Positions 10,481 through 39,345 are shown, counted from the first letter of the stretch. The stretch: DNA of 64,000 nt from Gammaproteobacteria bacterium GWE2_42_36 (GCA_001801305.1 MGXH01000002.1:3054-67053), one strand, 5' to 3'. Program-made: numbers and translations. Notes: generated by a model not told the origin, from the sequence alone.

Positions 10481-10913
10481 AATCACTTAATTTTTTGGTG
10501 CTTTGTGTGTGGCAGAGAATTTTTCTAAAAAATTAAGAAAAAAGGATTTTGTATATTGTTCAAAAAAGGTGAGGGAATACGTCAGTTCACTTGCGTGATG
10601 CAGAAATAGATCTGATTTTTCTTAAGTAGTTATTTTTATTGTTATTTGTTTAGACTTTTTAAAACGTTCTGGGAAATACAGAATATTGTTTTATCCGTTA
10701 TCGATAAAATTTTAACGAAAAAATGAAATGCGAACGTATCTTATTTTCGCCCATTATTTTTTCGCCTAATTCAGAGATGGATGAAAAGTTTAAAAAATAA
10801 CCAAGATAAACAATTTGCTTAAGTTTCTCTTAAGTTTTTGCGTCTATATTGAATGGGCTGCCAGTGTTGCAGTGACTGGTTGCACAAAATTTAAAATTTA
10901 CAAGGAGAAGATC

Positions 10914-11135
10914 ATGCTTATATTAACGAGGAGAATCGGAGAGACATTAATTATTGGTGATGATGTGTTAGTCACCGTTTTAGGTGTCAAAGGTAATCAA
11001 GTGCGCGTCGGCATTAATGCGCCTAAGACAACTTCTGTTCATCGCGAAGAAATTTATAAACGTATTCAAGATGAAAAAGAAAAAAATCAAGAAATATCGG
11101 AAGAAACCGATCAAGATGATACAGGAAATCAATAG
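10914..11135 (+). CDS. csrA: carbon storage regulator CsrA with an acidic C-terminal tail
   Basis: [38 protein letters not shown] matches CsrA. An AAGGAG Shine-Dalgarno lies 7 nt upstream. The tail is [20 protein letters not shown]. Confidence 0.9.
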
Positions 11136-11256
11136 GGTTTCTGCCTTTCGTCACGGTATAGTATAGAAAATAAATTTCAACTATTGTTGTATTTGAATTC
11201 TGAAGCGTCATCCCGCGTGCTTCATGCCCGTCAATTGCGGGGCGCAGCCGATCTCT

Positions 11257-11281
11257 CGTCATTGCGCTCCCCGCAATGACG
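11257..11281. repeat. GC-rich perfect hairpin (10-bp stem cgtcattgcg/cgcaatgacg, 5-nt loop) with a partial upstream copy
   Basis: Inverted repeat read directly from the sequence. A related arm (ccgtcaattgcgggg) lies about 25 nt upstream. It sits between convergent csrA and the ArnA-like gene. Confidence 0.35.
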
Positions 11282-11327
11282 GCAGAACGTTCTTGAATCA
11301 TGTCACAATCGCGGCGAATAGTTACAT

Positions 11328-12344
11328 TTATTTCAGATGGTAATCTAACGTTTTTCGAAGCGCTGTTTCAATATCATATTGCGGTTTCCAGCCCAGGCAA
11401 TTTTCCGCATGCTTGATTGAAGGAACGCGAGAAGGAACATCTTGATAGCCTTTGCCGTAATAAATGTTGGCATCTGTATCGATGAGTTTTGTTTTTTCTG
11501 CTAATTTTGCATATTTCGGATAAGTCTTAATGAGCTTCACTAATAACTCCGCCAATTCCCGAATCGATAAATCATTTTTCGGATTACCAATATTGAAAAT
11601 TTGTCCATTCGCCTTTCCCTCTTGATTATCGATAATTCGCATGAGGGCATCGATCCCATCATCAATGTAGGTAAAGCTTCGACGCTGTCTGCCACCATCG
11701 ACTAATTGAATATCTTTACCGCGCAAAATATTGCCGATAAATTGCGTTAAGACACGAGAACTGCCTTCTTTTTCGGCAAACACATCATCTTGTTTGGGGC
11801 CGATCCAGTTGAATGGTCTGAAATTGGTAAATTGTAATCCTTGGTGATTACCATAAGCATAAATAATTCGATCCATGAGTTGCTTAGAGGTTGAATAAAT
11901 CCATCGCTCTTTATTGATTGGCCCGACAATGAGCGGGCTTGTTTCTTCATCAAAAACGGCATCAGTCGACATCCCGTACACTTCAGACGTAGAGGGGAAT
12001 AGGACGCGTTTTTTATATTTGACGACTTGTCTAACAATCGGGAGATTAGCTTCGAAGTCGAGCTCAAACACACGCAGTGGATCGGTTACATAAGTGGAAG
12101 GTGTAGCGACGGCAACGAGTGGCAAAACCACATCGCATTTTTTGATATGATATTCGATCCATTCTTTATGGATCGTAATATCACCTTCGGTAAAGTGAAA
12201 ACGTTCGCGGCCCAATGAGCCCTCTAATTTATTGGCTGCAAGATCCATGCCATAGACGACCCAATCGGTATTGTCTAAAATCATTTCAGTTAGGCGGCTG
12301 CCGATAAATCCATTGACGCCTAAAATCAGTATTTTTTTAGTCAT
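11328..12344 (-). CDS. UDP-glucuronate decarboxylase-type NAD-dependent epimerase/dehydratase, homologous to the ArnA C-terminal domain
   Basis: Rossmann motif ILGVNGFIGSRL and a strong resemblance to the E. coli ArnA dehydrogenase domain (HFTEGDITIHKEWIEYHIKKCDVVLPLVA, PSTSEVYGM). There is no N-terminal formyltransferase domain. Confidence 0.8.
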   Translation of the reverse strand: MTKKILILGVNGFIGSRLTEMILDNTDWVVYGMDLAANKLEGSLGRERFHFTEGDITIHKEWIEYHIKKCDVVLPLVAVATPSTYVTDPLRVFELDFEANLPIVRQVVKYKKRVLFPSTSEVYGMSTDAVFDEETSPLIVGPINKERWIYSTSKQLMDRIIYAYGNHQGLQFTNFRPFNWIGPKQDDVFAEKEGSSRVLTQFIGNILRGKDIQLVDGGRQRRSFTYIDDGIDALMRIIDNQEGKANGQIFNIGNPKNDLSIRELAELLVKLIKTYPKYAKLAEKTKLIDTDANIYYGKGYQDVPSRVPSIKHAENCLGWKPQYDIETALRKTLDYHLK

Positions 12345-12347
12345 AAT

Positions 12348-13301
12348 TTATTGTCCTTCTTGTTGTTGACGAATTTCTCGAATTACAAAGCGCGGTCGTT
12401 TTAATGTTTCCAGATAAATTCTACCGATGTATTCACCTAAAATACCAACGCCCATGATGATGAGACCCATGATAAAAAAGGCGATGGCGAATAAAGTAAA
12501 CAATCCAGCGACTTCAGGGCCTATGACCAATCGACGAATGAGCAAGTAAATGACAAATAATAAGCTTAAAATCGAGACTGAAATCCCAATAAACGTAAAC
12601 ATTTGCAGTGGAACAAGCGAGAAATTCGTGATCAAGTCAAAATTATAGCGAATCAATTTGTAAAAACTGTAACTCGAGGTGCCGGCAGCACGTTCTTCAT
12701 GTTTGATACCGATTTCAGCGGGATTCGCGGCATAGGTCAACGCTAATGCGGTAATAAATGTCGAGCTTTCTCCGCTGGATACCATGAGATCGACTAAATT
12801 ACGACGATACGCGCGTAACATCGATCCTTCATCTTCCATTTTAAGGGAGGGAATCATTTTTTTACGTAACCAATTATGCGCATGAGAAACAAATAATCGC
12901 CATGGATTGTCTTGTCGATCCATGCGGTGGGTATTTACCACGTCATGACCTTTTTCCATTTCAGCGACGAGGCGAGGAATTTCTTCGGGCGGATTCTGTA
13001 AGTCGGCGTCCATCGTGATAATGATTTCACCACGGACATTTTCAAATCCTGCCATGATCGCCATATGTTGACCATAATTGCGATTGAAATGAATAATACG
13101 GAATTCGTTTGGTCGACGCTTAACGAAATCATTTAAAATCGCTGTAGAATTATCGGTGCTACCGTCATTCGTTAAAATCACTTCATACGGTTTGCCGAGT
13201 TGATCCATCACCGTGGTTAAACGTTGATAGAGAATTTCTAACACTTCCTGTTCGTTATGAACGGGAATGACGATGCTGATATAGGGTAGAGACGTAGTCA
13301 T
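12348..13301 (-). CDS. arnC: undecaprenyl-phosphate aminoarabinose transferase-like GT2 glycosyltransferase
   Basis: GT2 motifs (SIVIPVHNE, TMDADLQNPPEEI) and two C-terminal TM helices, as in ArnC/dolichol-phosphate sugar transferases. Confidence 0.8.
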   Translation of the reverse strand: MTTSLPYISIVIPVHNEQEVLEILYQRLTTVMDQLGKPYEVILTNDGSTDNSTAILNDFVKRRPNEFRIIHFNRNYGQHMAIMAGFENVRGEIIITMDADLQNPPEEIPRLVAEMEKGHDVVNTHRMDRQDNPWRLFVSHAHNWLRKKMIPSLKMEDEGSMLRAYRRNLVDLMVSSGESSTFITALALTYAANPAEIGIKHEERAAGTSSYSFYKLIRYNFDLITNFSLVPLQMFTFIGISVSILSLLFVIYLLIRRLVIGPEVAGLFTLFAIAFFIMGLIIMGVGILGEYIGRIYLETLKRPRFVIREIRQQQEGQ

Positions 13302-13380
13302 GAAAAAACCTCAGTTGTTTGTTTTGAGATAAATGGGAAAATCTTAGTTAAAAAAACATCAGTTCTTTTAAAATAAATGC

Positions 13381-14538
13381 TTACTTTCTAAATACCTCTT
13401 TCATTGTCGCAACGACCCGATCTTGTTGTTGTTCAGTTAGATCTGGGAAAAGCGGCAAACTGACAATGCGGCTTGCAATTGATTCGGTGTGTGGAAAATC
13501 GCCGAGCTTGTAGCCAAATTGATTACGGTAAAATGAATACAAATGTACCGCATCGTAGTGCAATCCTGTGCCGATATTATGTTCTTTCATTTTGGCCATG
13601 AAGGTATCGCGATCAACGCCAGCCACTTCCGGATTGATGAGCGGCGCAAACAAATGCCACGCATGTTTGCAATCGTAAGACGTTTTTGAAGGCGGCAAGG
13701 TGATTTCTTTCCAATCGGCGAGCAAGTGTAAATAACGATTCACCAAAACCGTTCGACGTTCGATAAACCGATCAAGCGAAGCGAGTTGATGAATGCCGAT
13801 CGCTGCTTGCAGATCGAGCATATTATATTTATAACCAGCCGAGATGACATCGTAATGCTGACTGCCTTCTTTCGAAAAACGGTTAAAGGCATCGCGATCA
13901 ATGCCATGAAAGCTGTTCACTTTAACGGAGCGTACAACGTGCGAATCATTGGTTGTGACGCAGCCGCCTTCGCCGCTGGTCATATTTTTATTCGGGTGAA
14001 AACTAAAGACTTGAATATCGCCGAAGCTGCCCAAAATTTTTCCTTTATAATAGGCGCCAATTGCGTGGGCCGCATCTTCAATCACGCGTAAATTGTATTT
14101 TTTAGCCAGTGCATAAATTACGTCCAGATCAGCGGGTAATCCCGTGTAGTGAATCGGCATAATCGCTTTAGTTTTTGGGGTAATCGCCGATTCGATTTTA
14201 GTCACGTCAATATTGTATGTGCGAGGATCGATATCGACAAACACGGGTTTCGCGCCTGCTTGAACAATCGTATTGGCTGAAGCAGCAAACGTTAAAGGGG
14301 AGGTGATGACTTCATCGCCGGGCTGAAAGTTGAGCGCTTGTAAAGCCAGTTGCAATCCTGCCGTTGCGGAGGTCAGCGGTACGGCATTTTCCGCCTTTAA
14401 ATAAGTTTTGAGATTTTCCGTAAATTTTTGTACGCGCGGGCCTGTCGTAAGCCAACCGGATTTTAAACAGTCAACTACTTCAGCAATGGTTGCGTCGTCA
14501 ATTGAAGGGCGAGCAAAAGGTAAAAAAGACTCTGTCAT
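13381..14538 (-). CDS. arnB: UDP-4-amino-4-deoxy-L-arabinose--oxoglutarate aminotransferase-like (DegT/ArnB family)
   Basis: 385 aa DegT/DnrJ/EryC1 PLP aminotransferase (FSFHPNKNMTSGEGG lysine region, DAAHAIGA). Confidence 0.8.
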   Translation of the reverse strand: MTESFLPFARPSIDDATIAEVVDCLKSGWLTTGPRVQKFTENLKTYLKAENAVPLTSATAGLQLALQALNFQPGDEVITSPLTFAASANTIVQAGAKPVFVDIDPRTYNIDVTKIESAITPKTKAIMPIHYTGLPADLDVIYALAKKYNLRVIEDAAHAIGAYYKGKILGSFGDIQVFSFHPNKNMTSGEGGCVTTNDSHVVRSVKVNSFHGIDRDAFNRFSKEGSQHYDVISAGYKYNMLDLQAAIGIHQLASLDRFIERRTVLVNRYLHLLADWKEITLPPSKTSYDCKHAWHLFAPLINPEVAGVDRDTFMAKMKEHNIGTGLHYDAVHLYSFYRNQFGYKLGDFPHTESIASRIVSLPLFPDLTEQQQDRVVATMKEVFRK

Positions 14539-14545
14539 AGTGTTC

Positions 14546-14917
14546 TTAACTCCGAGTTACAAAATACACCCCTAGTAGGATGACCAAGATGCCAACAATC
14601 CGTGTGGCGGATAAATTTTCTCCTAAAAAAAGATAAGCGCCTATTGGCGCTAAAATAAAACCAATGCTGGTTAATGGATAAGCAATAGAAACATCCGTGC
14701 GCGATAAAACCAACAACCAGAGAATAACGCTTAATACATAACAAGTAATCCCCGAGATAATGTAAGGGCTGGTTGCGACTTTAATCCCGATTGGAATCAG
14801 GCTGGGCAGGGTAAAAGTAAACGTACCGATGTGATTCATGGCTGCTTTAAGTAACAGTTGCGCCAGCGCATTGAGCAACATACAGGCAAACACAATTGAG
14901 AAAACGAGGATAGTCAT
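14546..14917 (-). CDS. small multidrug-resistance-fold 4-TM protein, ArnE/ArnF-like flippase subunit
   Basis: 123 aa with four hydrophobic helices (EamA/SMR-like), immediately upstream of arnB in the same operon. Confidence 0.65.
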   Translation of the reverse strand: MTILVFSIVFACMLLNALAQLLLKAAMNHIGTFTFTLPSLIPIGIKVATSPYIISGITCYVLSVILWLLVLSRTDVSIAYPLTSIGFILAPIGAYLFLGENLSATRIVGILVILLGVYFVTRS

Positions 14918-15013: not shown

Positions 15014-16014
<1,001 letters not shown>

Positions 16015-16171: not shown

Positions 16172-16221
16172 CCATGCGCGTCGTTCGCCTGGGGAAATGC
16201 TTCGCATTTCCTTTACCAGGC

Positions 16222-19200
16222 TCACCCCCAAATCATCAGATTCATATCATGTGGATACACCAATTTTGGATGATAAGGATAAATACGGACACCATAGGAA
16301 AATAAGCCCGTATCTTCTATTTTATATTCCGCCGTATACGTCAAAATACCACTTTCTCGTTTATCTGAAAGTGTCAACGGCATAGTAATAGGTGATGATT
16401 TCATTGGATCATCGGTCGTACGAATTAAAATCAGTTCTGCTTTGATTTCACTGGCCTTTAGTTTTCCGGAGAATAAAAGCAAGGTGATTTTTAGTTCGCC
16501 ACTGGTTTGGATCTTTCCATTTTTAATCCCTTCGACTAAGAGCGTTTTGATTTTAAGGGTATTAAAATGTAATCGAGTGCGTTCTTTCCATCGTACCAGG
16601 GCCTTTAAATCGGCAAAATCATTTTGCTGTAACTGGGTTGAATAACGGGCCAAGGGTAAATACAATTCTGACAGATAGTTTTTTACCATGTGGTGTGCGT
16701 TAAATTCGCAGCTGACTTCCATGATGGACGCTTTCATTCGCGCTACCCATTCTGATTTTCTCGTATCCTTTTTACTGTCGTAATACAATGGCGCAATTGT
16801 GTATTCCAGTTTATTGAGCAAATCATCGCACTCCGCGGCATTGCGTTTTTCTTCGTTGGTTTGCATTTCAACGGTATCAATCGACCAACCGGCTTGAGGA
16901 CTTGTTTCATCCCACCAGCCATCTCGAATCGAAAAGTTCAGTCCGCCATTCATCGCGACTTTCATGCCGCTCGTGCCACAGGCTTCTTTAGGGTAAATGG
17001 GATTATTTAGCCAGATATCAACCCCTTGCACCAATGCTTTGCTTAAAGACATATCATAGTCTTCTAGAAAGATAACGTGACCTTTAAAAGCCGGGTCGCG
17101 GGTTATTTCAATGATAGATTTCAAGACGTTTTTACCTAATGTATCGGCCGGGTGTGATTTTCCGGCAATCAATAACACAACCGGCATTTGGGGATTGGTC
17201 AGAATTTTTACGGCGCGTTCTCGGTTATTAAAAATTAAATCGTGTCGTTTGTAAGTAGCAAATCTCCTGGCAAAACCAATCAATAATGTTTGATTGGTTA
17301 ATGTTTCCAATGAAGACTGAATGAGTGATTCTTTTTCACTGCGGCGCCGATATTCTTTAGGAATACGCTCTTTCAAAATATTTAATAGGCGGTCTTTTTG
17401 AATTTGGTGGGTGTCCCATAAACTGTAATCGGGGATGAGGCTCATTTTTTTCCAAGTTTCGGGATCGTCTTGTGCATCGAGCCAAGAGCCTCCCAAATAA
17501 GTATCGAAAAGAATTCTCATGGGAATACCTAACCAAGTTTCGAGATGTACCCCATTCGTGACCCCTTCAATGGGCACTTCATTTTCCAGTAATCCCGGCC
17601 AGATCGGTTGCCACATATGCTGCGCAACACGTTGATGAATTTTTGATACGCCATTGGATTTAGCCGTTAATTTTAACGCTAGAATGGTCATTGAAAAGTT
17701 ATGCGCATTATCAAAATCGCGTGCGAATTCGAGCAGCTTTTCAATGGGGACGCCCAACAATTGTGCCGATTTAGAGAAATACTCTTTAATTAAAGTTTCA
17801 TCAAACACTTCATTTCCTGCCGGAACAGGCGTGTGTGTCGTAAAGACGGATGAAGCGCGCACCATTTCGATGGCCTCTGAATGTGAAAAGCCTTGATTAG
17901 CTAACATTTTAATGCGTTCTAACAATAAAAAAGCAGAATGACCTTCATTGAGATGGTAGACGCTCGGTGTGATCGCTAGCTTATCGGCAATTAATCGAAC
18001 ACCTGCGACGCCTAACACAATTTCTTGTAATAAACGTTGTGTTTTAGAATTGCAATATAATCGATTCGTGATTTGCCGATCATCAGGGTTGTTTTCAGGG
18101 ACGTCCGTATCGAGTAAATAGAGCGGGACTTTCCCCACTTTGAGTTTCCATATGCCGACGAAAATCGTTCTGTTTTGAACTTCAACGCCAATCAATAGAG
18201 GTTTGCCCGAATCATCGCTAAGTTGTTTTAAAGGTAATACTTTAGGGTCGATTGTGGCATGTTCGATGAGTTGCTCACCTTGATGGTCGACGCGTTGTGT
18301 CAGGTAACCTTGCTTGTAATATAAACCAATCGCAATTAAGGGCAAATCCACATCAGATACAGATTTTAAATAATCACCCGCCAAAATACCGAGGCCACCT
18401 GCGTAGATTGGTAAACTTTCATCTAAACCATATTCCAAACAAAAATAGGCGATGGGTTGATCGGCGTGAATGACCTCTAAATCCAATTTGCTTTTACGAT
18501 TAAGATATTGATCGAAAGCAATGAGTAAATGATTATATTTTTCCATATACCCGGGATCATTCATTTTTTGGGATAACAACGTGGACGATACGTTATTCAA
18601 AAATTCAATCGGATTGCGTTTTACTTTTTCCCATAAAACCGGATCCATCCCTTGAAATAATAATTTCACTTCGTGATGCCATGCCCACCACAAGTTGTAA
18701 GCGAGATCTCGTAATTGTGAAAGTTGTGCGGGCAATTGACACTCATGTTGAAAAGATCGAAAGCGCGGAGTAGTGGATTCAACCGTATGATAACTAGCCA
18801 TATACTCATTTTGTATATCTTCATAGTAAATGTCATTGAACTCGATGGCTTGGTCATAAGCATCGAGATAATCCTGATAAAACAATTTCCAGTCGGCTAA
18901 TTGCGCTATTTTAGCGACTTGTTCACGGATCGATTGTTTTTGCGCATCGGTTTGTTGGACGGTTTTATAAAGACAATCGCTCAGGCTGGTGACAATTTCT
19001 TCCTGTGTCCCATAATGTAACACTTGGACGGCTTCCTGATTCGGTAATTGTAAACTACTGACCCAAGATCCAAAGCCAGCCAAATTAGTAGTAATCGTCG
19101 GTGTTTGATAGGCAATACTTTCAAGCGGTGTGTAACCCCAAGGTTCATAGTAAGAAGGGAAGATGCTGAGGTCACAAGCGGCTAATATTTTCTCATAATC

Positions 19201-20439
19201 GATATTGAAAACACCGTCATGGCCATGTAAATAGCTATCGGAATAAATCACGGAAATTTTTCGACTCGGTTGATTGAAATTTAATTCGCGACACGTTTGA
19301 ATGATCGGATCTCTATTCGGGTCATTTAGTCGGTGTGTTGCAATACCGAGGGCGCTTTGCTGATTGGGGTCGTAAGACGCATGGCCTTGTGGTAATAAAC
19401 TGTCTTGTTCAGTGCGGTTATTTGCTGCAATACAAAATAACACAATGATGGGCGGCGCTTCAGCGGACAGTTCTTTTTCAAGTTTATCTAAGCTATACAA
19501 TAGTACGTCAAAACCCTTGTTATGAAATTCATAACGTCCGGAAGTAATCCAGAATAAAGCATTCGCCGGGACGTCATGACGTAAGGTTTGACTTGCCACA
19601 TGATGTAATTTTTCTCGAATAGCAGGAAGATCATAAGTTGTCAGGACTTGTTGAATATGCTCCACATCTAGTCCATTCGGTACGATTTTATCCGGATATT
19701 TTCCGAGCATGATATAGGCTTCATCGGCGGTGAGTGCGCTGACTGTTGTAAAGCAATCGGCTTCTCTAGCAGCAGCACGCTCGACAGAATGTTTAGCGAA
19801 AACACCATATTTTCTTGCTTCGGTTTCAGGATCAAAAGTGGCTGGTAAATTATAAATATCTCGGCGATCACTGGCTAACGCGCGGCCTAATACTGTGGCG
19901 TGGGTAGTAAATACTGTTGAAATGTTATGCGAATCATGTTCTGAAAATAAAATACCAGCGCCACATAACCATTCATGAAATTGAGCAATGATATTCGCAT
20001 TTTTGTAATGCTCATTTGAGGCGATGGCTTTAATGGCATCTGCGACGGTAGTCGAAAATAAAATGGGTTCGATGTATTCGTAATTGCCGGCGAGAGAATC
20101 CACATTAAAATGTGACCACATCGAATAAAGTATGTCGGCAATATTATAACGATTTTGATAATCGAGTAGAATGACTTGAGGTTTGCCTTCTTCCGCATCC
20201 CAATAACCCATGCGAAATCGCAAATGATGGTCTTCGAGAATTTTGGCGATTGGGGCTAAGTGATCAGGAATTGTTTCAACAAAATTTTGATTTTCAGGAA
20301 GCCAGGGGCCAACCATAATATAGCGATCGCCAAAAGAGGCGAGTGCTTGTTTGATTTTTGTACGCAAGACGGTATTGATGCCGCCGACTTTATTGCATAC
20401 TTCCCAGCTTGTTTCGAATAACCAAGTATTTTCTGACAT
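16222..20439 (-). CDS. fusion protein: N-terminal GT3 (eukaryote-type) glycogen synthase plus C-terminal GT35 alpha-glucan phosphorylase (GlgP family with DUF3417)
   Basis: 1405 aa. The N-terminus LFETSWEVCNKVGGINTVL matches the GT3 glycogen synthase signature (FExxWEVxNKVGGIxTV). About aa 600 onward carries DUF3417 (LAYNLWWAWHHEV) followed by phosphorylase motifs IAYFCLEYGL, GGLGILAGDYLKS and the PLP-lysine motif EACGTSGMKVAMNGG. Confidence 0.85.
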   Translation of the reverse strand: MSENTWLFETSWEVCNKVGGINTVLRTKIKQALASFGDRYIMVGPWLPENQNFVETIPDHLAPIAKILEDHHLRFRMGYWDAEEGKPQVILLDYQNRYNIADILYSMWSHFNVDSLAGNYEYIEPILFSTTVADAIKAIASNEHYKNANIIAQFHEWLCGAGILFSEHDSHNISTVFTTHATVLGRALASDRRDIYNLPATFDPETEARKYGVFAKHSVERAAAREADCFTTVSALTADEAYIMLGKYPDKIVPNGLDVEHIQQVLTTYDLPAIREKLHHVASQTLRHDVPANALFWITSGRYEFHNKGFDVLLYSLDKLEKELSAEAPPIIVLFCIAANNRTEQDSLLPQGHASYDPNQQSALGIATHRLNDPNRDPIIQTCRELNFNQPSRKISVIYSDSYLHGHDGVFNIDYEKILAACDLSIFPSYYEPWGYTPLESIAYQTPTITTNLAGFGSWVSSLQLPNQEAVQVLHYGTQEEIVTSLSDCLYKTVQQTDAQKQSIREQVAKIAQLADWKLFYQDYLDAYDQAIEFNDIYYEDIQNEYMASYHTVESTTPRFRSFQHECQLPAQLSQLRDLAYNLWWAWHHEVKLLFQGMDPVLWEKVKRNPIEFLNNVSSTLLSQKMNDPGYMEKYNHLLIAFDQYLNRKSKLDLEVIHADQPIAYFCLEYGLDESLPIYAGGLGILAGDYLKSVSDVDLPLIAIGLYYKQGYLTQRVDHQGEQLIEHATIDPKVLPLKQLSDDSGKPLLIGVEVQNRTIFVGIWKLKVGKVPLYLLDTDVPENNPDDRQITNRLYCNSKTQRLLQEIVLGVAGVRLIADKLAITPSVYHLNEGHSAFLLLERIKMLANQGFSHSEAIEMVRASSVFTTHTPVPAGNEVFDETLIKEYFSKSAQLLGVPIEKLLEFARDFDNAHNFSMTILALKLTAKSNGVSKIHQRVAQHMWQPIWPGLLENEVPIEGVTNGVHLETWLGIPMRILFDTYLGGSWLDAQDDPETWKKMSLIPDYSLWDTHQIQKDRLLNILKERIPKEYRRRSEKESLIQSSLETLTNQTLLIGFARRFATYKRHDLIFNNRERAVKILTNPQMPVVLLIAGKSHPADTLGKNVLKSIIEITRDPAFKGHVIFLEDYDMSLSKALVQGVDIWLNNPIYPKEACGTSGMKVAMNGGLNFSIRDGWWDETSPQAGWSIDTVEMQTNEEKRNAAECDDLLNKLEYTIAPLYYDSKKDTRKSEWVARMKASIMEVSCEFNAHHMVKNYLSELYLPLARYSTQLQQNDFADLKALVRWKERTRLHFNTLKIKTLLVEGIKNGKIQTSGELKITLLLFSGKLKASEIKAELILIRTTDDPMKSSPITMPLTLSDKRESGILTYTAEYKIEDTGLFSYGVRIYPYHPKLVYPHDMNLMIWG

Positions 20440-20445
20440 AGTTCG

Positions 20446-21660
20446 TTAGGCTCCTTTCTTTTTTTTCTGTTTCATTTTCTGCTGATTTAATTGTAAAACA
20501 AAATCAGTTAATATATTTTTGTAATTGACATAGGCGTCATAGGGGTTGTGGTAAGGATTGAAATATTTATGTACGTCACCATCATTCGCATATTTTGTGC
20601 ACATATAATAAAAATGATCGGATGTTTGTAATAATCGCCAAGTATGTAATAAGTCTTTATCGCCGGATGCTTTGACTTTTCCTTCTAAAAGGTAGACCGA
20701 TTGCAAGGCATCTTCTTGAAGCGGGTTTCCTCGCCAGGCTGAAAGATCTCGTTCTTCGTCCGCCCATGAAACAAAATGCGGTGTATCCAATGTCGCAACC
20801 GCTTTAAATTTTTTGCTGACTTCACAAGGCAGGAGGAATTCAAAATCGGCATGCTGGAAAATTTTTTCTGGTAATTGTTCTAAAAATGCAAAAATACCGG
20901 TTTCTTTCCATTGATGTTCGCCGAACGTTTCATAATCCATAAACAGATTGATCACCTCCGCTTGTCCGGCCAATTGATGAACCCAATAGGCGTATTTTTC
21001 AGCCAGCAAAGGATACTCGACCCAAGATTGATTAGAAAAACGAAACGCTACATCATCGGATAGTCGATAATTTTTTAACAGCTGTTGTAATTTTTTACAC
21101 CCGACAGGGCGATAAACAAAATTGGGACTACGCCAGCCGAGCACTTTATCGGCGCCTTCGGTAAGTAAGGTTTTATAACCCATCCCTTCGACAAATTGGG
21201 CGAGTTCATTATTATAAATTAATTCGGTATTACGAAAAGTGGTGGCTTTGTAGCCAAACTCTTTTCGAATCAATTTATGGTGTAGTTCAACTTGTTCGGT
21301 AAATTCTTCTTTGGAAAAAAGATACGACAGCGAGTGGTAATAAGTTTCATCTAAAAACTCGACTTCGCCGGTATCTGCCAATGCTTTGAAAGAGTCTAAC
21401 ACTTCGGGTCGATATTGTTTGAATTGATCGATGACCGTGCCCGATAAAGAGAAAGCAACTTTGAATTTTCCTCGATAACGTTTAATTAATTTAAGCAATA
21501 ATTGATTGGTCGGGAGATAACATTTTTCAGCGACTTTCAGCAAGATCTCTCGGTTGGTTTTTTCGTCTTCATAGTCATGCGATTGACCGATGTCAAAATA
21601 CGTGTATTTTCTTAACCGATTCGGTTGATGCACCTGAAAATATAAACACAGAGCAGTCAT
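20446..21660 (-). CDS. glycoside hydrolase family 57 protein (alpha-amylase / 4-alpha-glucanotransferase / branching-enzyme type)
   Basis: 404 aa with the GH57 region I signature near the N-terminus (YFQVHQPNR) and a conserved Trp/Glu-rich core. It is 6 nt downstream of the fusion gene. Confidence 0.7.
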   Translation of the reverse strand: MTALCLYFQVHQPNRLRKYTYFDIGQSHDYEDEKTNREILLKVAEKCYLPTNQLLLKLIKRYRGKFKVAFSLSGTVIDQFKQYRPEVLDSFKALADTGEVEFLDETYYHSLSYLFSKEEFTEQVELHHKLIRKEFGYKATTFRNTELIYNNELAQFVEGMGYKTLLTEGADKVLGWRSPNFVYRPVGCKKLQQLLKNYRLSDDVAFRFSNQSWVEYPLLAEKYAYWVHQLAGQAEVINLFMDYETFGEHQWKETGIFAFLEQLPEKIFQHADFEFLLPCEVSKKFKAVATLDTPHFVSWADEERDLSAWRGNPLQEDALQSVYLLEGKVKASGDKDLLHTWRLLQTSDHFYYMCTKYANDGDVHKYFNPYHNPYDAYVNYKNILTDFVLQLNQQKMKQKKKKGA

Positions 21661-23065: not shown

Positions 23066-25111
23066 TTAATGTTTGTACAACGATTGCGCGAGTTGCAAGA
23101 AAGCCGCGACACTCCATGCTTGATGAATGCATCCGCGTGGATGGTGTGGCGCGTCCCCATCAAAAATTTCCGAAACACAGCCGATACCGGCTTCGGATAA
23201 ATGGCGTGTGAGCGCATCCACACAGGGTTGCAATAATTGTTGAGTCGTTGCACGGTCGGCATACACTTTGTTGACTGCTCGAGCGAAATGCCCCAATAGC
23301 CACGGCCAAACAGTTCCGTTGTGATACGCTTGATCTCGTTTGGATTGCTCGCCTTGATAAATGCCGATGTAATGAGGATCTTCAGGCGATAAAGTGCGCA
23401 ATCCATACGGGGTCAACAAATGTTTGATAACGATTTCGATAACCCCTATCGCCATGTCTTTTGCTAGCGGAGAATAGGGGAGTGAGGCTGCTATGATTTG
23501 ATTCGGGCGAATAGATAGATCTTCACCGTCATCATTCACATAATCTTTTAAATGGTTTGACGATTTTATCCAAAAGACTTGTTGAAAAGCATTTTGGATT
23601 TTCTGTGCCAGTGTAGCAAAATTTTTCGCCGTTATTTTTTCGCCAAAACAGGTCGCTAATTCTTGCATAAAACAAATGAAATTATACCAAAGCGCATTTA
23701 ATTCGACGATTGCGCCATAGCGTGGTGTCGCCGGCTTCCCATTGACTATCGCATCCATCCAAGTGACATTGGTTCCAGGATCGCCGGCGTAAAGCAATCC
23801 ATTTTCTCGCTGATGAATCTGATACAAAGTGCCGGCTTGATAATGTGAAAAAATACTTTTTAACGTTGGCCATAGCCGTTTTTTTATCGAAGAACGATCT
23901 TTTGTTGTGAGATAGTATTGCTGCACGGCCCATGCGAACCATAAACTGGCATCGGCCGAATTATAGGCATTTTCCTCAGGTGTTTTACCCAGGAAATTAG
24001 GGATGATGCCTTGATGTTCCTGTTCGGCAAATGATTTGAGAATCGCTAAACATTCCGCCGCTTGGTCAGTAGATAAGGTGAGATCGGGTAGTGAGATCAT
24101 GGCATCGCGGCCCCAGTCTAAAAACCAGGGATAACCTGCTACGAGCGTGATGGATTGGCGTAAAGAAGAATCTGTATTTTCATCGATGGATAAGTAAGCG
24201 CCTGTCGCTCGCCCTTTTTCATCGCGTATCTCATCTTTTTGTACCCGCGTGAAATATTTCAGAAAATCTTGCCCGGATTGCTTCAGTTGTTGTTCTAACG
24301 GCGTCCCTGTATAAGAACGCCTCAATTTAACGCGGCGTTTTATTTCATTTTGGAAAATAAGAGAAAGATCATCGGATAATTCATTTGATGAAGCAGAGAA
24401 AATAATATCCTGGTGTTGATAACAAGCGATAGTAAATTGACCCGGGGAAAACAAATCTTCGCGATAAGGGTATCCGCGTTCTTGTTCTTCTCGGTATTCG
24501 TATTGTTTATACCACACCGGATTTTGTTCACATTCGAAAGCAGTGTTGATCTGAAAGTATAAGTTTGGAAATGTGGCATAGGGCTTTATTTGATAGCCTT
24601 GCTTGGAGGACGATAAAATGCGCGACATACAGTCGTTTTCATGCGTGAGTTCATGAAAATTGCGCGCAGCAATCATCGGACGTAATTGCAGCGTGATCGG
24701 TTGTTTGGATGAGGTTTTATATCGAATGAGTACCGTATTTCTTAAGTGGGGCATTAAAATTTCTTTGGTGATCGTTATATCGTTGAATTGAAACGTCCAG
24801 CACGGATGGGTTGTTAAATCGAAGCGTTGAAAACAATGAAAACTACCCTCTTGAAAATAATTCGGAAACTGCGATCCGCAAAGTGGATAAGAGATATCAT
24901 TGATGATCACATAATCTTCACATTTGGATAATAGAACAAACTTTTCAGCGAAGGCTTCAATTTCCGCAACGAGCAAGCCATGGTATTTTCGAGTGTGGCA
25001 ATTGAGTAACGAACTCGAAGCATAACCACCCAGATGATTGGTTTCGAGCCATTCTCGAGAAAGAAAATCCTGAGTATTTGAAAAAGCCGTTTTCGCAAAT
25101 GAAAAATCCAT
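23066..25111 (-). CDS. amylo-alpha-1,6-glucosidase-type glycogen debranching enzyme (GDE_C, six-hairpin glycosidase fold)
   Basis: 681 aa. The N-terminus REWLETNHLGGYASSSLLNCHTRKYHGLLVA is typical of bacterial/archaeal GDE-N. The C-terminal (alpha/alpha)6 barrel has ITLVAGYPWFLDWGRDAMISL and GLLYAGD motifs. Confidence 0.8.
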   Translation of the reverse strand: MDFSFAKTAFSNTQDFLSREWLETNHLGGYASSSLLNCHTRKYHGLLVAEIEAFAEKFVLLSKCEDYVIINDISYPLCGSQFPNYFQEGSFHCFQRFDLTTHPCWTFQFNDITITKEILMPHLRNTVLIRYKTSSKQPITLQLRPMIAARNFHELTHENDCMSRILSSSKQGYQIKPYATFPNLYFQINTAFECEQNPVWYKQYEYREEQERGYPYREDLFSPGQFTIACYQHQDIIFSASSNELSDDLSLIFQNEIKRRVKLRRSYTGTPLEQQLKQSGQDFLKYFTRVQKDEIRDEKGRATGAYLSIDENTDSSLRQSITLVAGYPWFLDWGRDAMISLPDLTLSTDQAAECLAILKSFAEQEHQGIIPNFLGKTPEENAYNSADASLWFAWAVQQYYLTTKDRSSIKKRLWPTLKSIFSHYQAGTLYQIHQRENGLLYAGDPGTNVTWMDAIVNGKPATPRYGAIVELNALWYNFICFMQELATCFGEKITAKNFATLAQKIQNAFQQVFWIKSSNHLKDYVNDDGEDLSIRPNQIIAASLPYSPLAKDMAIGVIEIVIKHLLTPYGLRTLSPEDPHYIGIYQGEQSKRDQAYHNGTVWPWLLGHFARAVNKVYADRATTQQLLQPCVDALTRHLSEAGIGCVSEIFDGDAPHHPRGCIHQAWSVAAFLQLAQSLYKH

Positions 25112-25197: not shown

Positions 25198-25899
25198 TTA
25201 TAAAGTGATTGTTTCACCCACTTTCAATTCAAGGCAATTTTCTTGGTAATGTTTTTTGAACAGTTTTTTAGCTAGAGTGCCGCTACAATGAAGCGGTGCA
25301 ATTCTTTTGACTTGGAGTGATTGCAAGGTGCGAATGAGACTTTCAATTTCCATCTGATTTTTTCGATACAAATGAAAGCCTCCTATAAAAAGATCGATGG
25401 GATCATGAGGAAAATGTGTTTTTACGACAGTGACAATGGTCGTTATGGATGGATGGGCACAGCCAGTTAAAATTGTGAGCCCGCGCGTTCCTTTTAAAAT
25501 TAAAACCTGTTCGACGATGAGTTGCTTATTGTATAGACCGACTAACTCGCCAGAAGAAAAGACTTGTTTGTCGATTACGCAAAAAGGCGAAACAGAAATT
25601 ATTTTATTTGAAGTGATTGAAATTCGTGAATGCGGGCAGAGATAAATTGATTCAGGGTCGGCAAAGGTAAGTAGTTTGTTTAATGCGCCTGCATGATCGT
25701 GATGATCATGAGAAATAATGATGGATTTTATTGAGGTGGGATCAATAGCCATCAAATGGAGATTATGACGCAATGCCTTACTGCTCTTCCCCACGTCAAA
25801 CAGAATAGCGTCATTGACGAGGCAAGAAAATCCCCAACCCGTTTTAAAATGTGGATGGATGGCATGAGAATCAAATAGCAGCTTAATATTCATAAGCAT
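25198..25899 (-). CDS. MBL-fold metallo-hydrolase
   Basis: 233 aa with the metallo-beta-lactamase HxHxDH motif (IISHDHHDHAGAL). It overlaps the coaBC 3' end by 10 nt. Confidence 0.7.
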   Translation of the reverse strand: MLMNIKLLFDSHAIHPHFKTGWGFSCLVNDAILFDVGKSSKALRHNLHLMAIDPTSIKSIIISHDHHDHAGALNKLLTFADPESIYLCPHSRISITSNKIISVSPFCVIDKQVFSSGELVGLYNKQLIVEQVLILKGTRGLTILTGCAHPSITTIVTVVKTHFPHDPIDLFIGGFHLYRKNQMEIESLIRTLQSLQVKRIAPLHCSGTLAKKLFKKHYQENCLELKVGETITL

Positions 25900-36879: not shown

Positions 36880-39204
36880 TTATTCTATTTTTGCCTGAAT
36901 CGATTGACGCGCTGGAATCGTATACTCGTGATCAAACAATATGAGCGTAATGGATTCTTTCGATTGATTTTCAATTTTAACCATTTCATTCGTCGCAGTG
37001 ATTTGTAAGAGATGATTTCTAAACATCACTTTGAAAGAAAACTGCTTCCACTGTTTGGGTATGCATGGATTGAAATGCAGGCAGTCATTTTTCACTCGCA
37101 TACCACCAAAACCTTGTACAACCGCCATCCAAGTGCCAGCCATACTGGTGATATGACAACCATCGCAGGTATCGTTATTGTAATCGTCCAGATCCAAGCG
37201 AGCAGTTCGTAAATACATTTCATACGCTTTGTCATGATAGCCGAGTTTTGTTGCTAAAATCGTGTGCACACAAGGGGACAAGGACGATTCATGCACGGTG
37301 CGCGGCTCATAGAAATCAAAATTTCTTCGAAGCGTTTCGAGATCATAACGGTCTTCAAAGAAATAGAGTCCTTGTAACACATCCGCTTGTTTAATAAAGC
37401 AAGATCGCAAAATACGATCCCATGACCATTTTTGATTGATGGGTCGTTCTTTTGGATCCAAATCTTTGACTAAGACTTGCTCCTTATCCATGTAACCTTC
37501 TTGCTGCAAGAAAATTTTCAAATTGTCCTCACAAGGGAAGTGCATGTGATCGATAATGTGTTGCCAAGCTTCCGTTTCAGTGCCTGCTTTTAATTTTGTT
37601 TGCTTCAAAATTTGTTCATATGTTTCAGGGTGACTTTTTTGAATGTCAGACAAACTTTTGATGGTGTATTCCATCGTCCAGCAAGCGATGGTATTGGTAT
37701 ACCAATTATTATTCACATTGTTTTCATATTCGTTAGGACCTGTCACACCGAGCATGACGTATTGATTTTTGGCAATCGACCAATTAACGCGTTGTGCCCA
37801 GAAACGGGAAATGCCAATCAATACTTCCAACCCGTAGTTGATTAAGTAATGCTGATCCCCGGTATATCGTGTGTAATTAAAAATAGCATAGGCAATGGCA
37901 CCATTACGATGGATTTCTTCAAACGTGATTTCCCATTCGTTATGACATTCTTCGCCATTCATCGTAACCATCGGATATAAAGCCGCGCCTGAATGAAATC
38001 CCAATTTTTTCGCATTTTCGATGGCACGATCTAGTTGTTTATAACGATACAATAGTAAATTACGCGCTACTTTTTCATCGGCCGTACTGAGATAAAAAGG
38101 AATACAATAAGCTTCCGTATCCCAATACGTACTGCCGCCATACTTTTCACCGGTAAATCCTTTAGGTCCGATGTTTAACCGTTCGTCTTCGCCGGTATAC
38201 GTTTGATTGAGCTGGAAGATATTAAATCGAATCCCTTGTTGGGCCGCAATATCGCCTTCGATAATAATATCGCTTTCTTGCCATTTTTTATCCCAAGCAG
38301 CGACTTGTTCTTGAAGTAATTTCTCAAAACCTAGTTGATAGGCCGCGTGAAGCGCTTTTTCACAAGCGACATGGAGCGCTGGTTTTTCATGATTGAGAGA
38401 GGAAACAATCGCGGCATATTTTTCAATGACGGTTTCTTGATTTTGTTTGCAGGAGACCGTGACAGTGCTGGCAATATATTTTCTTTTTTCAGTAGGAACT
38501 GGATTGAGTGACAATTTTTTGCCATTTTGTAAGATGTCAAATTGCATTCCCACGCATACGTGGAAATCGAGCTTTTTTGTTTTGACAGTAACATAACCTT
38601 CTTGCCCCTCAATCGATTGATCAAGTGCCGCCCAAAATTTCATGCGATAATTGGAATCTTCATTTTCAATATCGCCATCGATATAAGGCGTGATGGTTAA
38701 TTGACCATCAAAATTTAGTGGTTTGACGACGTAGCGAATAGCGCCGACTTCAGAGTGAGTAATGCTTAAAAAGCGAATCGTATTTACCTGGATTTCTTTT
38801 TTGCTCGGCAATACGGCAATAAATGAACGCGTCAAAACACCTTCTTTCATATTCAAAACACGTGTGAATTGCTTGATTTCACAAGTCGCTAAGTCGAGCG
38901 GCTCATCGTCGATTGATAGATTAATACCAATCCAATTAGGGGCATTGAGCACTTTGGCGAAATATTTCGGATAGCCATTTTTCCACCAGCCCACTTTGGT
39001 TTTATCTGGAAAATAAATGCCGGCAATATAGCTGCCCTGGAAAGTATCACCGCTGTATTGTTCTTCAAAATTAGCGCGTTGTCCCATCGCGCCATTACCT
39101 AAACTGCATAAGCTTTCAGTAATACGGTTATATTGCGGATAAAATTGATCTTCAATGATTTTCCATGGATCGCGGGTGATGTATTCTTTGATGAGGCTGG
39201 CCAT
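36880..39204 (-). CDS. GH65 glycoside-hydrolase-family disaccharide phosphorylase (maltose / trehalose / kojibiose phosphorylase type)
   Basis: 774 aa. The N-terminus matches maltose-phosphorylase folds. The catalytic-acid motif GPNEYENNVNNNWYTN has the GP(D/N)EY signature, within an (alpha/alpha)6 barrel. Confidence 0.85.
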   Translation of the reverse strand: MASLIKEYITRDPWKIIEDQFYPQYNRITESLCSLGNGAMGQRANFEEQYSGDTFQGSYIAGIYFPDKTKVGWWKNGYPKYFAKVLNAPNWIGINLSIDDEPLDLATCEIKQFTRVLNMKEGVLTRSFIAVLPSKKEIQVNTIRFLSITHSEVGAIRYVVKPLNFDGQLTITPYIDGDIENEDSNYRMKFWAALDQSIEGQEGYVTVKTKKLDFHVCVGMQFDILQNGKKLSLNPVPTEKRKYIASTVTVSCKQNQETVIEKYAAIVSSLNHEKPALHVACEKALHAAYQLGFEKLLQEQVAAWDKKWQESDIIIEGDIAAQQGIRFNIFQLNQTYTGEDERLNIGPKGFTGEKYGGSTYWDTEAYCIPFYLSTADEKVARNLLLYRYKQLDRAIENAKKLGFHSGAALYPMVTMNGEECHNEWEITFEEIHRNGAIAYAIFNYTRYTGDQHYLINYGLEVLIGISRFWAQRVNWSIAKNQYVMLGVTGPNEYENNVNNNWYTNTIACWTMEYTIKSLSDIQKSHPETYEQILKQTKLKAGTETEAWQHIIDHMHFPCEDNLKIFLQQEGYMDKEQVLVKDLDPKERPINQKWSWDRILRSCFIKQADVLQGLYFFEDRYDLETLRRNFDFYEPRTVHESSLSPCVHTILATKLGYHDKAYEMYLRTARLDLDDYNNDTCDGCHITSMAGTWMAVVQGFGGMRVKNDCLHFNPCIPKQWKQFSFKVMFRNHLLQITATNEMVKIENQSKESITLILFDHEYTIPARQSIQAKIE

Positions 39205-39345
39205 AATAGTTCCTTCATATGTTTATTTCTTTAATGGGTAAGATTTATTCTTAATTCCAAATGAATGCGCAACATATTCTCTAATGCTTAACCCATTTGG
39301 TCAAATAAAATGTGCGAAGTAGTGGTTATTGTGATTGTGGCTGTT

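Follow-up and report, generated by a model that had tools for sequence, protein, structure and literature searches.

Does a single polypeptide of a gammaproteobacterium really join an enzyme of glycogen synthesis to one of glycogen breakdown, and if so, what would it do and how did its host come by it? The question is raised by a gene in a 64,000-nucleotide (nt) stretch of DNA from Gammaproteobacteria bacterium GWE2_42_36 (GCA_001801305.1, MGXH01000002.1:3054-67053), which we refer to as the window and in which positions are counted from the first letter. A prediction made earlier from the sequence alone (the original prediction) had described this gene as a fusion of a eukaryote-type GT3 glycogen synthase to a GT35 alpha-glucan phosphorylase, highly atypical for its lineage and a candidate for horizontal acquisition. 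The GT3::GT35 fusion proves to be a real and intact two-module gene, with intact catalytic machinery and equal purifying selection in both modules and a gene order that is conserved across phyla. It probably encodes a bifunctional glycogen phosphorylase/synthase of the type catalogued as K16153, expressed last in a conserved four-gene alpha-glucan operon.

Two-module architecture and catalytic machinery

The open reading frame (ORF) starts with ATG and runs through 1405 codons with no internal stops (coordinates are collected in Table 1), and the motifs quoted for it in the original prediction are all present, with LFETSWEVCNKVGGINTV at amino acids (aa) 7–24 and GTSGMK at aa 1155–1160. Pfam and NCBIfam domain calls place both modules on this uninterrupted chain as had been proposed, and only the module sizes required correction: the two-module layout stands, while the GT3 module ends at about aa 535 rather than about 590 and the phosphorylase module measures about 840 aa rather than about 800. 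The ORF is found again in an independent assembly, a Logan contig (SRR22388088) in which the 1405-aa product is identical except for T1342A, and the metagenome-assembled genome (MAG) GWF2_41_13 contains a gap-free 1405-aa orthologue with 91% identity. The best 120 database relatives are 1396–1507 aa long, and cover 100% of the query in 116 cases, 99% in three and 81% in one. With three independent assemblies concordant and the homologues similar in length, we ruled out an artefact in which a frameshift or chimeric contig had made one gene out of two neighbours. A check for a split into two genes found none, no point in favour of an artefact emerged among the assemblies and the best 120 homologues, and we consider this explanation vanishingly improbable.

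The N-terminal half matches the Pfam Glycogen_syn model (PF05693) with an E-value of 1.3e-97 and 328.5 bits (cut-off 27), whereas the same half reaches only 43.9 bits against Glyco_transf_5, and the fusion scores 49.6 bits against the GlgA model TIGR02095, far under the cut-off of 328. The best PDB matches of this half are GT3 enzymes throughout, and it aligns with yeast Gsy2p (3NAZ/6U77), human GYS1 and the Caenorhabditis elegans glycogen synthase with E-values of about 1e-77 to 1e-79, the alignment to the eukaryotic enzymes falling into two stretches at aa 3–342 and 365–533 (E 5e-79 for Gsy2p). The domain search was thus negative for a GT4- or GT5-like identity, which we rejected because the match to PF05693 is strong and the GT5 GlgA models fall far under cut-off, and the GT3 assignment holds.

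Residue conservation was assessed by aligning the query and the 119 full-length relatives that match it best (120 sequences in all, referred to below as the 120 homologues). The catalytic residues of Gsy2p all have counterparts in the fusion (R20 corresponds to K17, E169 to E156, H193 to H180, R320 to R302, K326 to K308, E509 to E432 and E517 to E440), with K17 the less conserved of these (97/120) and each of the other six kept in 118–120 of the homologues. In an AlphaFold2 model of aa 1–1200 produced from a 57-sequence family alignment, the GT3 module has the GT-B fold, with target-normalised TM scores of 0.70–0.78 against GYS1 and Gsy2p.

The eukaryote-type label is correct at the level of the GT3 family, but the regulatory and assembly features of the yeast enzyme are absent. 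H500 of the Gsy2p glucose-6-phosphate (G6P) site is replaced by D, as it is in 116 of the 120 homologues; R580, R581, R583, R589 and R592 of the Gsy2p arginine cluster become D, A, K, Q and K, respectively, in variable columns, leaving the R587 equivalent as the sole widely kept arginine of the six (96/120); and the Gsy2p insert at residues 363–441 (about 78 aa), which we take to be the tetramer-forming helices and interface of the yeast enzyme, has shrunk to 17–31 aa in every homologue. The module has no regulatory tails, and its C-terminus passes straight into the linker and phosphorylase. Yeast Gsy2p is 44% identical to stand-alone GT3 proteins from Bacteroidales and 31–33% identical to the fusion GT3 modules, and it groups with the former in a tree in which the fusion GT3 modules form their own clade (our trees were neighbour-joining (NJ) trees based on Kimura distances, unbootstrapped, with part of Gsy2p, reconstructed from an alignment in print, as the sole eukaryotic sequence). 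Given the missing sites and insert and the closer kinship of Gsy2p to stand-alone Bacteroidales GT3, we regard the label as an over-reading. This also applies to the description of the enzyme as UDP-glucose-dependent, as uridine diphosphate glucose (UDP-glucose) is the presumed donor by analogy with the family, and no galU, glgC or pgm gene that might supply a donor was found within the 64-kb window.

The C-terminal module consists of the helical DUF3417 domain (PF11897; aa 569–676, E 1.6e-31), the Pfam Phosphorylase core (PF00343; aa 826–1174) and a GlgP_C-type beta domain (PF28476 on record for the product; aa ~1263–1405), and aa 663–1262 match the NCBIfam model TIGR02094 over its full length (1–600 of 600; E 7e-228, 758.2 bits against a cut-off of 191.7). 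The model for the Thermococcales maltodextrin phosphorylase, NF041129, gives 734.7 bits, under its equivalog cut-off of 1500, indicating a homologous protein and not an equivalog. Among solved structures, the module is closest to the glycogen phosphorylase of Segatella copri (ScGP; 9L6I, 852 aa), with which aa 557–1404 align end to end as far as ScGP residue 850 (E 5e-173). ScGP is an active glycogen phosphorylase whose pentamer binds and wraps glycogen particles, and roles have been assigned to K609, which carries the pyridoxal phosphate (PLP), and to H316, R507, R508, K513, Y512 and E278 (PMC12912991). The fusion equivalents are, in the same order, K1160, H869, R1058, R1059, K1064, Y1063 and E832, each kept in 119–120 of the homologues. 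At the distal site for adenosine monophosphate (AMP), ScGP R583 is replaced by K, a position at which 62 of the homologues have K and 53 have R.

When the fusion was compared with its GWF2_41_13 orthologue, the ratio of non-synonymous to synonymous substitution rates (dN/dS) was 0.037 for the GT3 module and 0.035 for the GT35 module, although both values are approximate as dS is about 1.3 and near saturation. Neither half is decaying, and purifying selection is equal on both. This agrees with the earlier view that both halves keep their catalytic signatures (at least 118/120 for each residue checked bar K17) and that the gene is no decayed relic. These figures also bear on the suggestion that one half only is catalytic, with the other acting as a glycogen-binding, oligomerisation or regulatory scaffold. 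Inactive domains are found in other glycogen-enzyme fusions, such as the GlgB of the chlamydial GlgA-GlgB (PMC11046441, PMC7935935), and a GT3 module without the eukaryotic oligomerisation insert could lean on a phosphorylase scaffold; however, conservation of catalytic residues in at least 118 of the 120 homologues extends to both halves (K17 apart), the PLP lysine and the two glutamates of the GT3 E-X7-E motif included, and dN/dS is equally low on either side of the linker, making a non-catalytic half quite improbable.

The linker is placed where the alignment to Gsy2p stops (aa 533) and that to ScGP begins (aa 557), and the linker span is 34–43 residues long across the 120 homologues, a near-constant length that hints at a constrained tether. 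The AlphaFold2 model has a mean pLDDT of 87.4 and a pTM of 0.59, with pLDDT below 50 at aa 540–556 and 561–563, and predicts two confidently folded modules with no confidence in their relative arrangement. A Foldseek search of PDB with this model placed ScGP first (E 1.5e-56, 38% identity) and the human, yeast and worm GT3 synthases next (E ~1e-39 to 1e-35), with Escherichia coli GlgP ranked much lower.

Gene order, family and descent

Four genes run in the same direction in the order GH133, GT4, GH57 and GT3::GT35, the fusion being last, with gaps of 107, 14 and 6 nt between them. Translation of the fusion is likely to be coupled to that of GH57, as only 6 nt lie between the GH57 stop and the fusion start and the Shine-Dalgarno sequence is inside the GH57 gene. 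A scan for promoters and terminators at the locus gave counts not above those of shuffled sequence. We note a perfect 8-bp hairpin, GGAAATGC-GAA-GCATTTCC, on the minus strand at 16193–16211, 11 nt past the fusion stop, which has no T-run and was not called by the terminator scan.

Table 1. Features of the fusion gene and of the operon in which it lies.
Feature	Coordinates	Strand	Basis or remark
Complete coding sequence, GT3::GT35 fusion, 1405 aa	16222..20439	-	Stop codon 16222-16224
GT3 glycogen-synthase module, aa 1-~535	18835..20439	-	PF05693, Gsy2p alignment, conservation, AlphaFold2/Foldseek
Inter-module linker, aa ~536-563, ~28 aa (DIYYEDIQNEYMASYHTVESTTPRFRSF)	18751..18834	-	Between Gsy2p and ScGP alignments
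Clade-2 GT35 alpha-glucan phosphorylase module, aa ~564-1405	16225..18750	-	Pfam, TIGR02094, ScGP alignment
Codon of PLP lysine K1160	16960-16962	-	ScGP alignment
Shine-Dalgarno AAGGAG, 11 nt upstream of fusion ATG, within GH57 3' end	20451..20456	-	Sequence
GH57 glycoside hydrolase, 404 aa, directly upstream of fusion	20446..21660	-	PF03065 E 2.8e-73; synteny
GT4 retaining glycosyltransferase, 427 aa	21675..22958	-	Pfam Glycos_transf_1/Glyco_transf_4; synteny
GH133 'archaeal-type' amylo-alpha-1,6-glucosidase/glycogen debranching enzyme, 681 aa, first cassette gene	23066..25111	-	Pfam GDE_N + GDE_C; TIGR01561; synteny

Among the products of the three upstream genes, the GH133 protein scores 388.7 bits against TIGR01561, over the cut-off of 364.15. 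The GT4 protein is under the cut-off for every NCBIfam equivalog and has MshA, GlgM and the Pyrococcus abyssi GlgA as PDB relatives. The GH57 protein has the motifs HQP, RNTELI and DYETFGEH and is without the C-terminal domain of GH57 branching enzymes, and its sole PDB sequence match is a weak one to a GH57 4-alpha-glucanotransferase (E 3e-4). We compared gene order by tblastn of the cassette neighbours against 37 related loci, 25 of which are fusion loci. In 22 of these 25, GH57 is the immediate upstream neighbour of the fusion, and the complete GH133-GT4-GH57 series is found in the same order in 15 loci, with two more showing a partial GH133 match (one of them cut by a contig end). The loci with the ordered cassette span at least six lineages, from Gammaproteobacteria, Deltaproteobacteria/Myxococcota, Planctomycetota, Thermoanaerobaculia and Bacteroidales/Prolixibacteraceae. 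In the remaining three loci (L008, L012 and L026; one from Chlamydiales and two from Planctomycetota), GH57, GT4 and GH133 are missing upstream of a full-length fusion, and these indicate that the fusion can exist outside the cassette. Conversely, two Nanohaloarchaea contigs (L030, 4978–15524; L032, 8307–17728) have a stand-alone GT3 within about 10 kb of a GH57, two GT4 and a GH133-like gene, which suggests that the partnership of these families is not confined to the fused form.

The fusion already has a name in KEGG, where K16153 is defined as 'glycogen phosphorylase/synthase [EC 2.4.1.1 2.4.1.11]' (PMC8307300; also used in PMC11093988). JGI uses the names 'phosphorylase/glycogen(starch) synthase' or 'glycogen phosphorylase/synthase', and the proteins so named align to 100% of the query and have the same collinear GT3, DUF3417, GT35 core and GlgP_C order, a length of about 1400–1460 aa and no architectural difference. 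By this comparison our gene is a divergent member of a catalogued and widespread family. NCBI-sourced names ('alpha-glucan family phosphorylase', 'glycogen phosphorylase') describe the phosphorylase half only, and it follows that pathway reconstruction based on GT5 GlgA and GlgC, as in a CAZyme rule, would miss the synthase half.

We surveyed the distribution of full-length copies in one-genome-per-species GTDB contigs, using the MAG labels. Identity to the query is 48–51% in uncultured Gammaproteobacteria, including some labelled Coxiellaceae (91% in GWF2_41_13), 40–43% in Deltaproteobacteria/Myxococcota/Polyangia, 41% in Chlamydiales, 35–39% in Planctomycetota, 36% in Thermoanaerobaculia and 35–36% in Bacteroidales/Prolixibacteraceae; the nearest relative beyond the query's own near-species group has 55%. 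The suspicion that the same architecture occurs in Bacteroidetes was therefore well founded, as full-length copies are present in Bacteroidales and Prolixibacteraceae MAGs, whereas the gene cannot be called highly atypical for a gammaproteobacterium when it belongs to a clade in which MAGs of uncultured Gammaproteobacteria, some labelled Coxiellaceae, carry the fusion at 48–55% identity.

Of 1.84 billion cluster representatives, only 395 matched the GT3 half at E <= 1e-30. The best 150 of these include 25 of at least 1300 aa and 26 of 700–1299 aa, which are likely to be truncated fusions as most have phosphorylase motifs, and fusions are thus a major bacterial form of a rare GT3 family and not peculiar to this genome. 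Several proteins of about 530–560 aa (P0121 and similar) match the GT3 of the fusion in one continuous stretch, lacking the eukaryotic insert, with identities of up to 45%; these may represent stand-alone forms, split genes or fusions truncated at contig ends. A search for split pairs, in which a GT3 gene and a phosphorylase gene are neighbours, found none up to 10 kb from the stand-alone GT3 genes that we fetched. It should be noted that Bacteroidales/Prolixibacteraceae MAGs hold two GT3 types (loci L035–L037 versus L020 and L022), one being a stand-alone protein of about 610 aa with 44% identity to Gsy2p and the other the cassette fusion with 31%.

The NJ trees of the two halves share the same clades (Gammaproteobacteria; Deltaproteobacteria/Myxococcota plus Chlamydiales; Planctomycetota plus Thermoanaerobaculia; Bacteroidales), all fusion GT3 halves form one clade separate from the stand-alone GT3, and the pairwise distances of the two halves are correlated (r = 0.84), which points to one old fusion that has co-evolved since. 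The trees fit mostly vertical descent of this fusion within lineages, perhaps with an occasional old transfer of the cassette between phyla.

Had the gene been acquired horizontally in recent times, from Bacteroidetes for instance, it would be foreign to its host genome. The rarity of GT3 in bacteria could be taken to favour this, as could the patchy occurrence of the cassette across unrelated phyla, which suggests old inter-phylum transfers such as the one implied by the Chlamydiales copy nested among deltaproteobacterial ones. However, the GC content of the fusion (0.411) and that of its third codon positions (0.382) are indistinguishable from the means for the window genes (0.422 +/- 0.024 and 0.387 +/- 0.040), and no gene in the window has a smaller codon-usage distance. 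In GWF2_41_13 the same operon is followed by the same trxB, arnF-like and arnB-like genes, so that the neighbours of the fusion agree on both sides, and the gammaproteobacterial copies are monophyletic for both halves. Bacteroidales are unlikely donors, given that their fusions are among the most distant, further from the query than those of Deltaproteobacteria/Myxococcota. Composition, flanks and phylogeny effectively refute a recent event, so that the candidate acquisition of the original prediction is not supported in this form, and we judge it very improbable.

Proposed joint action of the two modules

In the bifunctional reading that we prefer, the GT3 module would lengthen alpha-1,4 chains at their non-reducing ends, with a nucleotide sugar as the source of glucose, and the PLP-dependent C-terminal module would phosphorolyse the same ends to give glucose-1-phosphate (G1P). 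The helical and beta domains of the phosphorylase, which build the pentamer in ScGP, might hold both activities on the polymer, and this scaffold could substitute for the tetramerisation and regulatory elements absent from the GT3 module. The direction of flux would be set by metabolites (inorganic phosphate (Pi), G1P, nucleoside diphosphate glucose and AMP) and not by the eukaryotic G6P/phosphorylation switch, while GH57 may remodel or branch the glucan and GH133 take off alpha-1,6 stubs, so that the operon would form a self-contained system for storing a glycogen-like polymer. The coupling in fixed stoichiometry, or the reciprocal regulation, that was originally suggested for the two halves is plausible.

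Several points weigh against this reading. We found no report of an enzyme assay for any fused member of the family in the full-text literature searched, so that both activities are assigned from sequence. The fusion GT3 modules form a clade apart from the characterised UDP-glucose enzymes, and galU and glgC are missing from the window. No regulatory site was identified, with H500 replaced by D and only R587 of the six cluster arginines generally kept, and the AMP-site arginine of ScGP is also replaced. The pTM value and the low-confidence linker leave a fixed inter-module geometry unsupported, and opposing activities on one chain would be wasteful of energy unless they were regulated.

In another reading, the phosphorylase half would be mainly synthetic. 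It would form or lengthen malto-oligosaccharide primers from G1P for a GT3 module that, as in eukaryotes, is unable to initiate chains and has no glycogenin partner, making the fusion a machine for priming and elongation and not a pair for synthesis and degradation. GT3 enzymes require a primer and glycogenin has not been reported for prokaryotes (PMC11046441), ScGP runs the reverse, synthetic reaction in vitro (PMC12912991), and the two halves have co-evolved as a unit. Against this, the synthetic kcat of ScGP is reported to be much smaller than that of other phosphorylases (PMC12912991), the GT4 of the operon is an equally good candidate for priming, and the GH133 debrancher is the normal partner of a degradative phosphorylase. 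Cellular Pi/G1P ratios also favour phosphorolysis, and we consider a priming function unlikely.

A more ambitious version of the bifunctional reading is possible, though we hold it only tentatively. The operon might be a laterally spread 'alternative glycogen' cassette replacing GlgC, GlgA, GlgB, GlgP and GlgX, with the fusion at its core, assembled as a ScGP-like pentameric ring that bears five GT3 modules on short linkers of constant length. Bound to the glycogen particle, this machine would switch between elongation and phosphorolysis of the same chain ends in response to metabolites, a form of control unlike either the bacterial GlgC or the eukaryotic G6P/phosphorylation paradigm.

Comparison with known systems helps to define what is particular to the fusion. 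It shares with ScGP a helical domain (DUF3417), the core of the phosphorylase and a beta domain at the C-terminus, but ScGP is a stand-alone protein whereas the fusion carries the same module behind a GT3 synthase, and the pentamer and AMP inhibition (through an AMP-driven inhibitory decamer) are properties described for ScGP. The eukaryotic enzymes (Gsy2p, GYS1 and C. elegans GSY-1) belong to the same family and share the GT-B fold and a KxGG-type N-terminal motif, but the fusion is without their phosphorylatable tails and without glycogenin. Stand-alone prokaryotic GT3 proteins from DPANN/Altiarchaeota/Nanohaloarchaea and Bacteroidales are about 580–620 aa long, have no phosphorylase within 10 kb and fall in separate clades; in Prevotella bryantii, a GT3 that may be of the stand-alone or the fused type takes the place of GlgA/GlgC in a UDP-glucose pathway (PMC7935935).

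The archaeon Picrophilus torridus has a GT4-GH133-GH57 gene cluster in which the function of the GT4 is flagged as unknown (PMC11046441). The same three partner families are present there without a GT3::GT35 fusion, whereas in the cassette described here, which occurs in bacteria of several phyla, their order is constant and the fusion follows directly. Other fusions of the glycogen pathway, including the chlamydial GlgA-GlgB, TreS-Mak/TreS-Pep2 and the Neisseria GlgB-MalQ (PMC11046441, PMC7935935), likewise place two glucan-metabolising modules on one chain, but these catalyse steps in the same direction, whereas the GT3::GT35 fusion joins nominally opposing reactions acting on the same chain end. 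The family offers a clean test case for how opposing activities are handled on a single chain.

The fusion itself was already known (K16153), and this particular gene contributes a further divergent member and little else; it is no anomaly for its lineage. The family spans Gammaproteobacteria, Myxococcota, Planctomycetota, Acidobacteriota, Bacteroidota and Chlamydiota, with strong selection and a conserved operon. Annotation based on GlgA and GlgC would overlook the GH133-GT4-GH57-fusion cassette, which has the look of a glycogen system in its own right, and genomes with the fusion could be scored as negative for glycogen synthesis by such rules.

Neighbouring loci

Immediately downstream of the fusion lies trxB (15052..16014, plus strand), and beyond this an arn-like sugar-modification cluster (11328–14917) with genes for an NAD-dependent epimerase/dehydratase, a GT2, an ArnB-like aminotransferase (under the cut-off of its equivalog model) and a small membrane protein resembling ArnF. 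The arnB-like and arnF-like genes were the two used as queries, and both occupy the same position in GWF2_41_13. On the other side of the operon, a 233-aa ORF (25198–25899, minus strand) between coaBC and the GH133 gene has no Pfam match at E <= 1e-8, and its counterpart in the Logan contig has only a faint Lactamase_B match. As it overlaps the end of the coaBC ORF by about 10 nt, it may belong to the upstream transcription unit and not to the glucan operon.

A second glucan/disaccharide locus is found about 16 kb from the fusion (36880–44811). This includes a GH65 phosphorylase of the maltose/trehalose/kojibiose-phosphorylase family (36880..39204, minus strand), a 228-aa ORF without a Pfam match and with a GC content of 0.489 yet only 0.301 at third codon positions (39346..40032, minus strand), a HAD hydrolase of the beta-phosphoglucomutase type (40048..40815, minus strand) and a four-gene ABC importer facing the GH65 and HAD genes (41057..44811, plus strand). 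The GH65 locus could add to, or draw from, the G1P pool on which the fusion would act. Finally, about 850 bp between alaS and the epimerase gene (10480–11328) contain no ORF of at least 150 aa and no Rfam or tRNA match, and have a GC content of about 0.364, the lowest within the profiled region at 8000–30000.

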